Positions 7,385 through 10,590 of a stretch of DNA of 10,590 nucleotides are shown here, one piece after another (position 1 is the first letter of the stretch; the number at the start of each line of letters is the position of its first letter). The notes beneath the pieces were generated by a model. The model worked only from the letters and a program-made list of their open reading frames with translations. It had not been told where the DNA came from and ran no database searches. Made by a program: the position numbers and the translations under genes. Origin of the DNA: a virus (Duplodnaviria; Heunggongvirae; Uroviricota; Caudoviricetes). The DNA lies in IMG/VR virus record IMGVR_UViG_2617270966_000006, positions 1-10,590 of that record. The stretch is one strand, 5' to 3'.

Positions 7385-10300
7385 ATGGCAGTAAAGATTT
7401 CAGGTGTACTGAAAGACGGCACAGGAAAACCGGTACAGAACTGCACAATCCAGCTGAAAGCAAAACGTAACAGCACCGCGGTGGTGGTGAACACGCTGGC
7501 CTCAGAAAATCCGGATGAAGCCGGGCGTTACAGCATGGACGTTGAGTACGGTCAGTACAGCGTTATTCTGTTGGTGGAAGGATTCCCGCCGTCACATGCC
7601 GGGACCATCACCGTGTATGAAGATTCTCAACCCGGTACGCTGAATGATTTTCTCGGTGCCATGACGGAGGATGATGCCCGTCCGGAGGCATTGCGACGTT
7701 TTGAACTGATGGTGGAAGAGGTGGCGCGTAACGCGTCCGCGGTGGCACAGAACACGGCAGCCGCGAAGAAGTCAGCCGGCGATGCCGACACATCTGCCCG
7801 TGAGGCGGCAACCCATGCGACTGATGCTGCAGGCTCAGCACGTGCAGCCAGCACGTCAGCCGGACAGGCCGCTTCGTCGGCTCAGTCAGCGTCTTCCAGC
7901 GCAGGAACGGCATCAACAAAGGCCACTGAAGCGGAAAAAAGTGCTGCCGCTGCAGAGTCCTCAAAAAGCGCGGCAGCTACCAGTGCCAGTGCCGCGAAAA
8001 CGTCAGAAACGAATGCTGCAGCGTCACAACAATCAGCAGCCACTTCTGCATCCACCGCGACCACGAAAGCGTCAGAAGCTGCCACCTCAGCCCGGGATGC
8101 GTCGGCTTCAAAAGAGGCGGCAAAATCATCAGAAACGAACGCATCCTCGAGCGCCAGTAGCGCAGCTTCCTCGGCAACGGCGGCAGCAAATTCCGCGAAG
8201 GCGGCAAAAACGTCCGAGACGAACGCCAGGTCTTCTGAGACGGCAGCGGGACAGAGCGCCTCAGCTGCGGCAGGCTCAAAAACAGCGGCTGCGTCGTCTG
8301 CCAGTGCCGCGTCAACAAGTGCCGGGCAGGCCTCAGCCAGTGCCATCGCCGCCGGAAAATCGGCAGAAAGCGCCGCATCATCCGCTTCAACAGCCACAAC
8401 GAAGGCTGGCGAAGCCACTGAACAGGCCAGCGCAGCAGCGAGGTCTGCTTCCGCAGCGAAGACATCCGAAACGAACGCGAAAGCGTCGGAAACCAGCGCA
8501 GAATCCTCAAAAACGGCAGCCGCATCGTCCGCCAGTTCGGCAGCGTCATCGGCATCATCTGCGTCTGCTTCAAAAGATGAGGCGACCAGACAGGCGTCAG
8601 CAGCGAAGGGCAGCGCCACGACGGCATCCACGAAAGCAACAGAGGCGGCAGGCAGTGCGACGGCTGCATCTCAGAGCAAAACTGCTGCCGAATCTGCTGC
8701 GACTCGTGCAGAAGCTGCCGCTGATCGTGCTGAAGAGATTGCCGGTGCAGTTGCGATGGAAGACGCAAGCCTTACAACTAAAGGTGTTGTGAAACTTAGC
8801 AGTGCTGTCGATAGCACCAGTGAATCTTTAGCCGCGACACCAAAAGCAGTTAAGACCGCATATGATAATGCTGAAAAACGACTACAGAAGGATCAGAATG
8901 GTGCTGATATCCCCGACAAGGGCCGCTTCCTGAATAACATTAATGTTTACAGCAAAGGTGAAGTGGATCAGAAAAAGGGGATGCGATACGTTGTGGTAAA
9001 TGCCCCGGCGGGTGTCCAGGAAGGTAAATATTATCCGTTAGTGATAAAAAGGAATGACAGCCATCGGGCATCCCGCGTTGTCATTTCAACGCCAAGTCGC
9101 ACAGCTAATCACAGAATGAATAACTGTGAGTTTAATGGTTTTGTTTGCGCAGGCGGCTGGACGGACCGGGGTAGCTATGCCTGTGGTATGTTCTGGGCTT
9201 ATTCATCATCGGAACGCGCTATTCATTCCATTCTGATGAGTAATAAAGGCGATACCGTAGACAGCGTATTCTATATAGAAGGTGGGGCATTTCCCGTAGA
9301 GGTCTTTTTAGAAGAAGGACTTTCTGTTACTGCTCCTGCTTCTGATTATGTTGTTGCTGAAACGACTTATAAATTTGGCGCAACTGATCCTTATTCTGAA
9401 TCAGTTTCGGTAAATTTAATTTTAGATTTTAAACAAGGTAATGGATTTTATAGTTCGTATCCTGTTTTGAGTAAGTCAGACATTAGCGGTAATAAGGTTT
9501 ACGCTAATGATGAAGTTATTGTCCGTAGTCAGAATGCGTTAAGGATGATTGCTGGCGATTACGGTGTCATATGGCGAAATGATGGAGCAAATACTTACTT
9601 GCTCATGACTGATAAAGGCGACCAGTACGGTGGCTGGAACGGTCTTCGACCATTTGCAGTAAATAACGCAACAGGTGAAGTGACGATCAATACACCACTT
9701 AATTCTCCAAAAGGGGTTAAGGGGAACTCTGATACAGCTACGAAACTTCAGACTGCAAGAAAAATATCCGGTGTTCCATTTGATGGCTCTACTGATATCA
9801 CTTTAACCGCCGCGCATGTTGCCGCTTTCGCAAGAAGAGCAACAGGGTCATATGCTGATGCTGATGGCGGCGTGCCGTGGAATGCTGAATCTGGTGCTTA
9901 TAATGTAACTAGAACGGGCGACAGCTATATTCTGGTTAACTTCTATACCGGAGTCGGAAGTTGCCGGACCTTGCAGATGAAGGCGCATTACAGAAATGGT
10001 GGTCTGTTCTACCGTTCTTCAAGAGACGGTTATGGTTTTGAGGAAGACTGGGCAGAAGTTTATACCTCGAAAAATCTTCCACCAGAAAGCTACCCAGTCG
10101 GCGCACCAATCCCGTGGCCATCAGATACCGTTCCGTCTGGTTATGCTCTGATGCAGGGGCAGACTTTTGACAAATCTGCCTACCCGAAACTTGCAGCCGC
10201 TTATCCGTCAGGCGTGATCCCTGATATGCGTGGCTGGACGATTAAGGGCAAGCCCGCCAGTGGTCGTGCCGTATTGTCTCAGGAACAGGACGGCATAAAA

Positions 10301-10590
10301 TCGCATACCCACAGCGCCAGCGCATCCAGTACGGATTTGGGGACGAAAACCACATCGTCGTTTGATTACGGAACCAAATCCACGAATAACACCGGGGCGC
10401 ATACCCATAGTATTAGCGGGACCGCAAATAGTGCCGGCGCGCACCAACACAAGAGTTCCGGTGCATTTGGTGGCACGAACACGAGCATTTTCCCTAATGG
10501 TTATACCGCGATTTCAAATCCAAGCGCGGGGATTATGAGCACAACAAGCGGTAGTGGCCAGACTCGTAATGCAGGGAAGACATCATCAGA
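7385..10590 (+). CDS. stf: Side tail fibre protein Stf, 3'-partial (about 1068 codons, continues past window end), mosaic
   Basis: Frame traced open from ATG 7385 to the window end. N-terminus [30 protein letters not shown]... matches lambda Stf as recalled. Contains an Ala/Ser-rich repeat tract, a lambda-like block (GAPIPWPSD...[50 protein letters not shown]) and the start of His-containing distal repeats ([14 protein letters not shown]). Absent from the ORF track because no stop lies in the window. Confidence 0.9.
7990..8490 (+). repeat. In-frame degenerate coding repeats within stf (four AAKTSETNA-type units)
   Basis: Motif copies [36 protein letters not shown] and [12 protein letters not shown] at about nt 7993, 8122, 8205 and 8455. 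They sit in a GC-rich Ala/Ser/Thr low-complexity region (about 7740-8760) that also generates spurious ORFs in other frames. Confidence 0.6.

Follow-up and report, generated by a model that had tools for sequence, protein, structure and literature searches.

A probable side tail fibre gene of the StfR type from a lambdoid Escherichia coli prophage, assembled from routinely exchanged modules

The stf gene found in the window, by which is meant the whole 10,590-nucleotide stretch of viral DNA that was analysed, very probably (we would put it at about 85%) encodes a side tail fibre of the StfR type belonging to a lambdoid prophage of E. coli, that is, a homotrimeric adhesin made of many modules. 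The layout is already known from StfR of E. coli K-12, and the gene is a real but ordinary patchwork of modules that are routinely swapped. Its open reading frame runs uninterrupted on the plus strand from position 7385 to the end of the window, giving 1068 codons with no stop inside the window. An initial annotation of this DNA had described the gene as a three-part mosaic. That it encodes a side tail fibre, and one that is mosaic with respect to lambda, is borne out, but the mosaic is not a new construct and is finer than was supposed, with at least four breakpoints. It carries little weight as a finding: modular exchange between phages has its textbook examples in tail fibre genes, and the layout is that of K-12 StfR.

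The surroundings of the gene are those expected of a lambdoid Stf: within the block of tail genes, stf comes immediately after J and lom. The lom gene, which precedes stf in lambdoid phages, occupies 6721..7320 on the plus strand (PF06316 Ail_Lom, E = 2e-120), and the order lom–stf matches that in lambda, ZF8-1 and the other phages compared; both StfR and the ZF8-1 stf occupy the same position after J and lom. The tail tip gene J is itself split. Its C-terminal half, from about codon 575, is found at 4960..6651 on the plus strand (Pfam Ig_J, Phage_Tail_Tip and Ig_GpJ_C); at 4960 it is truncated by a Mu-like prophage whose end falls there, this being the position at which the phage matches begin and the Mu-like matches stop. 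On the other side, the window ends inside stf; a tfa gene lies directly 3' of stf in ZF8-1, strain 181.1, PhiR30_1, ev099 and mEp460, and in ZF8-1 the stf product has 1132 amino acids in all and is followed by tfa (tfaQ).

The most informative known protein for comparison is StfR of the K-12 Rac prophage (b1372, 1120 amino acids), which is 85% identical in amino acid sequence over residues 1–1022, with five gap positions, none of them in the rod. Thus, the protein is largely collinear with a single known family and has an equal repeat number, contrary to the initial annotation, although the shift in composition that it noted is still present. The order of modules, the 48-heptad rod, the gp34-type centre and the gp37-type collar and needle are as here in K-12 StfR and in the set of E. 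coli proteins entered as 'prophage tail fiber N-terminal domain-containing protein', and the same layout occurs in 139 complete E. coli genomes and two phages. Rac StfR differs in its central allele (residues ~426–825, 50–70% identical in nucleotide sequence) and in its tip after residue ~1010, the last 46 amino acids of the window protein being divergent. The ZF8-1 protein (WP_279964645.1) is 97.6% identical in amino acid sequence to the window protein and differs in the N-domain (85–88% nucleotide identity). The exact module combination of the window gene has no copy in the databases, the best overall match being 96.5% at the nucleotide level.

Sliding nucleotide identity reveals how the patchwork is made up, with at least four recombination breakpoints. 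The segment encoding residues 1–105 is 99% identical to Rac, PhiR30_1 and ev099, and 85–88% identical to ZF8-1; the rod is 98–100% identical to ev099; residues 426–825 are 100% identical to ZF8-1 and 50–70% to Rac and ev099; residues 850–975 are 96–99% identical to all relatives compared; and the tip, from residue ~1000, shares 99% identity with ZF8-1 and ev099 and 50–53% with Rac and PhiR30_1, as measured over the last interval compared (nt 10385–10534). Among the 80 IMG/VR loci from which the architecture counts were drawn, the 67 complete fibres with this N-terminus show 21 different combinations of modules. The gene has probably been put together by homologous recombination among lambdoid phages and resident prophages at conserved junction segments, namely the N-domain, the rod and residues 850–1000, each stretch being 98–100% identical to a different relative. 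Recombination between lambda and the Rac or Qin stf has been shown experimentally (PMC3945230).

The comparison with lambda is best made with the 774-residue Ur-lambda Stf, which corresponds to orf-401 plus orf-314 of lambda PaPa. The two proteins share the N-terminal collar domain and rod (nt 7385–8293, residues 1–303, 87.5% nucleotide identity to lambda stf), the end of the rod and, further on, the gp37-type collar and needle (nt 10100–10378, residues 906–998, 86.7% identity to lambda orf-314), as the initial annotation had recognized in calling the N-terminus and a distal block lambda-like. For the distal block this is correct of the collar and needle; the variable gp37-like tip was wrongly lumped in with them. 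The homology stops at residue 499, corresponding to lambda residue 394 (the end of the alignment), and restarts at residue 902/903, corresponding to lambda residue 529. Between these points, residues 500–902 (some 400 amino acids) have no lambda match, and the hinge and distal segment of lambda (residues 394–528, 135 amino acids) give way to ~403 residues made up of modules of the Mu-S, gp34 and gp37_C types. The natural junctions coincide with R393 and S528, the fusion points used in working chimeric Stf proteins (PMC11338833), and the gene is thus a natural example of a ~400-residue gp34/Mu-type shaft being tolerated between them.

The condition of J raises the question of what the gene is used for at present. 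Since J is split by the Mu-like prophage, the phage that encodes the fibre may never incorporate it into a virion, and it is quite possible, if in our estimation somewhat short of an even chance, that stf is the stranded remnant of a defective prophage, either decaying or kept only as material for recombination with infecting phages. The right end of the Mu-like element does adjoin J at 4960, and the defective K-12 prophages Rac and Qin are a precedent, being donors of stf/tfa sequence to lambda (PMC3945230). The 1068 codons present in the window form, however, an unbroken reading frame, and over 1.2 kb the gene is 100% identical to the copy in the ZF8-1 prophage, where J is intact; any inactivation would thus be recent. 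It should be noted that such a fate would bear on the current use of the gene and not on its coding content, and is compatible with its assignment to the StfR type.

The StfR-type protein begins with the Stf N-terminal domain (residues 1–134, 7385..7786, plus strand; Pfam PF08400 phage_tail_N, E = 1.9e-71), of which residues 1–94 match the solved N-domain of lambda Stf (9e7m/9mgh, E = 2e-51) and make up the collar domain, by which the fibre docks on the tail. This role in the virion has been described for lambda (PMC12617516), and by analogy 12 chains, arranged as four trimers, would be docked around the tail tube–tip junction.

The N-terminal domain leads into an Ala/Ser/Thr tract (residues 121–455, 7745..8749, plus strand; Ala 38%, Ser 24%, Thr 12%) with a GC content of 0.61. 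The GC content is 0.80 at the second codon position and only 0.50 at the third, and hence the GC-richness is an effect of the amino acid composition; an origin of the tract in foreign DNA was considered and rejected because the GC-richness sits at codon position 2. The tract consists of 48 uninterrupted heptads of the form x-x-S-A-x-x-A, with alanine at position 7 in 47/47 and at position 4 in 34/48, and serine at position 3 in 37/48. Compared with itself, the tract gives identity peaks at multiples of seven residues and at no other offset (mean z 7.9, against –1.2 elsewhere; 200 shuffles). K[TS]SETNA units number exactly four (residues 205, 247, 275 and 359), as compared with three in the rebuilt Ur-lambda Stf. 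The initial annotation had counted four AAKTSETNA-type units, and the number is right, although the true repeating unit is the heptad and not a nonamer. Residues 102–393 of Ur-lambda Stf have been modelled as a proximal coiled coil, and residues 394–422 as a hinge, from cryo-EM and cryo-ET maps together with segment-wise AlphaFold3 predictions (PMC12617516). On the strength of the heptad statistics and the homology to this modelled rod, the tract is predicted to be the proximal three-stranded coiled coil of a trimeric fibre, and the 48 heptads would be followed, as in lambda, by a hinge.

That the tract is longer than its lambda counterpart had also been noticed, correctly. The difference is a block of 105 residues, or 15 heptads (residues 304–408, 8294..8608, plus strand), which carries the fourth KTSETNA unit and appears as one clean insert in a global alignment with the rebuilt Ur-lambda Stf; the same length is found, without a gap, in K-12 StfR. 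At a rise of ~0.15 nm per residue, these 105 residues would make the rod ~15 nm longer than that of lambda.

Beyond the rod, the gene changes in composition. The GC content at third codon positions is 0.36 for residues 456–902 and 0.55 for the flanks outside the repeats (Fisher, p = 5e-7). It is lowest for residues 641–700, where it falls to 0.07–0.15. The initial annotation had drawn attention to an AT-rich segment of ~350 residues at 8990–10050; the low GC3 and the want of a lambda match are as it said, but the zone begins earlier, at about nt 8645, and ends near nt 10090. The centre does therefore have a different compositional history from its flanks. The centre of the Rac-type allele has a similarly low value (0.38), which suggests that the acquisition of the centre predates the two alleles, and the low GC3 may go back to an earlier source among phage genes richer in AT.

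The segment can be divided into four modules, each placed on the plus strand. The first (residues 454–521, 8744..8947) combines the rod end with a hinge-type module that resembles Mu gpS (PDB 5yvq/8ju3, matching gpS residues 105–172) and includes a Phage_fiber_2 repeat at residues 462–502 (PF03406, E = 6.6e-21). It is followed by a putative beta-sandwich knob (residues 521–700, 8945..9484) with the conserved motif NNCEFNGF...GGWTDRG, of which residues 521–662 fall in no Pfam family. The third is a trimerization domain of the T4 gp34 type (residues 655–758, 9347..9658; PF21446, E = 4.8e-30, 104.9 bits against a cut-off of 27), and matches to solved gp34 domains (4uxe/5nxf/5nxh/9x3r, E ~1e-18) extend over residues 701–786. 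The last, immediately before the collar, is a Mu gpS/gp37_C-type module (residues 812–906, 9818..10102; 8ju3, matching gpS residues 322–415; PF12604, E = 4.9e-6, residues 825–893), which from residue ~850 belongs to the stretch conserved in all relatives compared. A profile search of an alignment against the PDB was dominated by the flanks of chimeric partial matches (J and Mu gpS) and was uninformative for residues 521–660. Structure prediction for residues 521–802 (AF2, 26 sequences) yielded a poor monomer model (pLDDT 55), and the top Foldseek matches of this model were to gp34 at a probability of 0.97 but a TM score of 0.17, which is weak support. Past the hinge, at a place occupied in lambda by 135 residues, the chain would form a beta-structured distal shaft composed of a Mu-S-like repeat, the beta-sandwich knob, the gp34-type trimerization knob and the gp37_C-type module.

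These relationships extend across unrelated phages. In T4, the domain matched by residues 655–786 (PF21446; 4uxe/5nxf) belongs to the C-terminal knobs of gp34, the proximal fibre protein, and that matched by residues 901–1032 comprises the collar and first part of the iron needle of gp37, the distal receptor-binding tip (PDB 2XGF). T4, a myovirus, distributes them over two of the four proteins of its fibre, whereas the window gene fuses them into a single chain preceded by a lambdoid anchor and coiled coil. In phage Mu, gpS (5YVQ, 8JU3, 9KI1) contributes the matches to residues 454–521 and 812–906, but lacks the PF08400 anchor, the long coiled coil and the gp34 knob.

It might be suggested that the polymorphic central knob (residues ~521–790), with its beta-sandwich that lacks a close solved homologue and its gp34-type trimerization domain, is a second, lateral ligand-binding site, for a surface glycan for example, so that StfR-type fibres would be bivalent and their central alleles kept by selection on host range. 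We consider this improbable. It would account for the existence of two deep alleles (50–70% nucleotide identity) between flanks that are 96–100% identical, although module exchange alone can produce such divergence. The window allele is present at full length in 161 of 5426 E. coli genomes, with ~1400 records matching at 60–80%, and the same fold recurs in the distal fibres of unrelated phages; the solved homologous domains of T4 gp34, however, are described as structural and trimerization domains (PMC5537660), similarities to lectins are far below a convincing level, and 40 of the 67 related fibres do without the module, as would be expected of an optional spacer. Were a lateral site present, the alleles would be maintained by the diversity of host surfaces, the fibres would be bivalent adhesins, and the length of the rod (32 as against 47–48 heptads) would tune their reach.

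An enzymatic role for the centre was also considered. A tailspike or depolymerase was rejected as there is no beta-helix, no hydrolase or lyase domain and no enzyme family: none was found in Pfam, NCBIfam or PHROGs, and NCBIfam gave no family at all.

How the rod came by its length can be judged from the relatives, in which length was scored as the distance between anchors, a strict counter of alanine at position 7 having failed on single substitutions. The long form is found in 75 of 79 related phage contigs, and lambda, with 15 heptads fewer, is a short outlier. The variants differ by 105 or 112 residues (15 or 16 heptads), or by +4 or –3; there are mainly two length classes, of 32 and 47 heptads between the anchors, and rare variants depart from these by whole heptads or by +4/–3, which amounts to a set of design rules for fibre length. 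Within the tract, neither TRF nor an exact-seed repeat search found a tandem DNA array; DNA copies are merely 60–88% alike over 16–44 nt, and the identity of repeats at third codon positions is 0.27 whether they are in or out of register. Repeats that have no similarity at synonymous sites give no sign of recent slippage, and the expansion by slippage that had been suggested for the tract does not stand up. Across the junction of the extra block, the identity of lambda to the window falls from 87% to 69%, a pattern more suggestive of one allele having replaced another than of a simple indel. In one relative (L058), unit 2 is fused to unit 4 by a deletion, and hence the units can serve as recombination sites.

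It is thus very unlikely that the tract was recently expanded here by slippage or unequal recombination and that the AT-rich centre is a receptor-binding or depolymerase-type domain newly acquired by a lambda-type fibre: the extra KTSETNA unit and 105 residues relative to lambda, the deletion in L058 and the real GC3 shift in a centre without a lambda counterpart are what it has in its favour, and its 'recent' and 'enzymatic' parts are largely refuted by a tract length that is equal in K-12 StfR and nearly all related contigs, by the absence of a TRF array or any in-register excess of synonymous identity, and by a centre that matches nothing but fibre modules of the shaft and knob kind, from Mu gpS, T4 gp34 and gp37.

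In the StfR-type fibre, the collar and the start of the needle are of the T4 gp37 type (residues 901–1032, 10085..10480, plus strand; PDB 2xgf, E = 9e-58; PF07484 Collar, E = 6.9e-12). His-x-His motifs are present at residues 974, 1006 and 1020, giving three in the window, as compared with seven in all in ZF8-1. PF03335 Phage_fiber is matched only below threshold (E = 0.038, 14.5 bits against a cut-off of 20), and the needle is therefore called from the 2xgf match and the His-x-His motifs. The head region of T4 gp37 cannot be aligned to the window protein.

Between the third and fourth His-x-His motifs lies the variable tip-encoding segment (residues 1023–1068, 10451..10590, plus strand), marked by the drop in identity to Rac and PhiR30_1 and cut by the end of the window. 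It is probably the start of the receptor-binding head. The likely determinant of host range is this variable gp37-like tip (from about nt 10400 to 10590 and beyond) and not the AT-rich centre. The tip of lambda Stf, whose receptor is OmpC (PMC12617516, PMC11338833), differs from that of the window. With the end supplied from the relatives, the complete fibre would finish in the gp37-type collar, the iron needle with its His-x-His motifs and a variable head for receptor contact, and a Tfa chaperone, whose gene would lie immediately downstream, would assist the folding of this end. Mu gpS likewise depends on a chaperone of the Tfa family. Mu, in addition, switches its tip by Gin inversion; the window differs in this respect, the Gin/Cin/Pin crossover core AAACCnnGGTTT having no matches with one mismatch or fewer within it. 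In Rac and mEp460, a recombinase gene follows tfa.

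The side tail fibre gene, stf, starts at nt 7385 and stays open for 1068 codons, up to the window's end. Directly 5′ of it lies lom (6721–7320, + strand), which is preceded by the C-terminal half of J (4960–6651, + strand; codons ~575–1132 remaining), an order, J-lom-stf, that is found in lambdoid phages. The best match to stf (96.5% at the nucleotide level) is in E. coli strain ZF8-1, where a gene of 3399 nt, annotated ‘prophage tail fiber N-terminal domain-containing protein’, is followed by the chaperone gene tfaQ; as its product has 1132 aa, the window's stf is short of ~64 codons. 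Partial matches to the stf DNA occur in 248 phage records and, among 5426 complete E. coli genomes, in 5120; matches that cover 80% or more of the gene occur in 139 E. coli genomes and two phages (PhiR30_1 and Turner). The finding made on this gene is real, and it concerns a member of the StfR-type lambdoid side tail fibres (StfR being the fibre of the K-12 Rac prophage), a well-known and abundantly annotated family. The mosaicism of such fibres is a classic observation.

The mosaic was mapped by sliding nucleotide identity against four collinear relatives, namely Rac, the phages PhiR30_1 and ev099, and ZF8-1. Residues 1–105 are 99% identical to Rac, PhiR30_1 and ev099 and 85–88% to ZF8-1; the Ala/Ser/Thr heptad tract that follows (aa 121–455, hereafter the rod) is 98–100% identical to ev099; aa 426–825 are 100% identical to ZF8-1, 96–99% to PhiR30_1 from aa ~501, and 50–70% to Rac and ev099; aa 850–975 are 96–99% identical to all four; and the last identity window (nt 10385–10534) gives 99% to ZF8-1 and ev099 and 50–53% to Rac and PhiR30_1. 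This patchwork implies no fewer than four breakpoints, located around nt 7700, 8640, 9850–9935 and 10400. A comparison of 67 complete fibres that share the N-domain gave 21 distinct sets of modules: 27 of the fibres have the centre (two with the window's allele, 23–25 of Rac type), 58 the collar and 16 the window's tip, and only one fibre has all of the window's modules together, with a different hinge allele. Of the 5426 complete E. coli genomes, 161 carry a full-length copy of the window's central allele, and ~1400 records match it at 60–80%. Experiments have measured recombination of lambda with the Rac and Qin stf/tfa regions (PMC3945230).

For comparison with lambda, the 774-aa Ur-lambda Stf (orf-401 plus orf-314 of lambda PaPa) was reconstructed by putting back the missing C, and was used for global alignment. 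Lambda Stf matches aa 1–352 at 81% amino acid identity and orf-314 matches aa 903–1024 at 80%; the match to aa 357–499 is out of register, and none was found in lambda for aa 500–902. The alignment places a single clean block of 105 extra residues in the window (aa 304–408), and there are four K[TS]SETNA units (aa 205, 247, 275 and 359) compared with three in lambda. The description in the initial annotation, with lambda-like ends, a longer tract and an AT-rich centre, is thus borne out, with slightly shifted boundaries. At the junction of the extra block, nucleotide identity to lambda drops from 87% to 69%, a drop that an exchange of alleles would fit better than a simple indel. The junctions with lambda (lambda 394 and 529) coincide with R393 and S528, the fusion points at which a functional chimeric Stf has been built (PMC11338833).

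GC3 is 0.36 in the region encoding aa 500–902 and 0.55 in the flanks outside the repeats (p = 5e-7). GC3 is lowest, 0.07–0.15, at aa 641–700 (window 9305–9484) and is 0.25–0.30 at aa 441–500 (8705–8884), with an island of normal GC3 between them at aa 501–540; this unevenness suggests a centre that was itself pieced together from parts of differing history. In the Rac allele the centre is likewise AT-rich at synonymous sites (GC3 0.38), so the signature is a property of the module family, older than both alleles. Pfam and PDB sequence searches resolved a Phage_fiber_2/Mu gpS-like piece (aa 454–521), a 142-aa stretch belonging to no Pfam family (aa 521–662), a T4 gp34 trimerisation domain (PF21446, aa 655–758, E 4.8e-30; PDB 4uxe/5nxf over aa 701–786) and a gp37_C/Mu gpS-like piece (aa 812–906). 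Since these are fibre modules, the earlier proposal that the centre is an enzymatic or the principal receptor-binding domain is not supported. There is a small chance that the β-sandwich/gp34-type knob, deeply polymorphic and without a close solved homologue, might bind a ligand. The gp34 knobs are considered structural by Granell et al., the largest being proposed to nucleate trimerisation (PMC5537660).

Residues 901–1032, spanning the collar and the beginning of the iron needle, match the T4 gp37 tip structure 2XGF (E 9e-58) and have His-x-His motifs at aa 974, 1006 and 1020; the sequence is allele-specific after aa ~1010. By analogy with gp37, we infer that the stretch between the third and fourth such motifs, mostly beyond the window, would encode the receptor-contacting head.

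The rod consists of 48 uninterrupted heptads, x-x-S-A-x-x-A, with Ala at position 7 in 47/47, Ala at position 4 in 34/48 and Ser at position 3 in 37/48; its self-identity is raised only when the offset is a multiple of seven (mean z 7.9, compared with −1.2 elsewhere). Alanine at positions 4 and 7 matches the spacing of a and d residues in a coiled coil. The homologous residues 102–393 of Ur-lambda have been modelled, from cryo-EM/cryo-ET maps and segment-wise AlphaFold3, as a proximal trimeric coiled coil, with a hinge at 394–422 (PMC12617516). The 105 extra residues would lengthen the rod by ~15 nm, if each contributes a rise of ~0.15 nm.

Rod length was scored as an anchor-to-anchor distance in a sample of 80 IMG/VR loci with the shared N-domain. 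In 75 of 79 loci this distance measures 329 aa, or 47 heptads, so the long rod is usual and lambda is the short outlier; the K-12 StfR rod equals the window's in length. Lambda and one contig have 224 aa, and another contig, in which a deletion has fused the second SETNA unit to the fourth, has 217 aa. Two rods, in L041 and L077, differ by +4 and −3 residues, the remaining length variants in this small sample differing by whole heptads. Coiled coils accommodate indels of +4 and −3 as ‘stutters’. In one 1252-aa Stf (L075) the rod ends after ~27 heptads and a wholly different distal part follows, so module exchange is possible inside the coiled coil as well.

Recent expansion of the rod by slippage, as the initial annotation had it, finds no support: no tandem DNA array was found in the rod, where DNA copies are 60–88% alike over 16–44 nt, and third-position identity of the repeats is 0.27 both in and out of register. 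Foreign DNA as the cause of the rod's high GC (0.61) is rejected, since the excess sits at codon position 2 (0.80; Ala/Ser/Thr codons), with GC3 only 0.50. Alternative-frame and antisense ORFs of 249–336 aa lie within the rod, at 7782–8792 (+), 7882–8631 (−) and 7977–8768 (−), in the same place as lambda's old antisense ‘orf206b’ annotation; they are an expected by-product of GCN/AGC/ACN codon periodicity and are unlikely to be genes.

A Mu-like transposable prophage occupies window 308–4960 with its right end, which carries a SASA-esterase/DUF6645 ORF, DUF1378, DUF826, com and mom. Its boundary at 4960 falls inside J, which is thereby split, and the lambdoid prophage with this stf is therefore probably defective. 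ORF 4825–6651 is a read-through fusion spanning the junction, which is present in 0 of 5426 complete E. coli genomes. Elsewhere in E. coli the Mu-like end adjoins citF, bglJ, bcsA, flgL, an MFS gene and others, as expected for random transposition. Between tail fibre genes and com/mom, ORF 531–2585 (+, 684 aa) has a SASA domain, a carbohydrate (sialate-type) acetylesterase domain, at aa 117–312 (E 1.5e-13) and DUF6645 at aa 533–650; its product may be an esterase that modifies a receptor or acts on surface glycans. Window 1–307, whose two small ORFs have no Pfam match, does not match Mu-like prophages that are 99–100% identical from 308 or 378 onward; in these prophages the genes for the tail fibre and for its assembly occupy that place, and the stretch may be a fibre segment that is variable or invertible.
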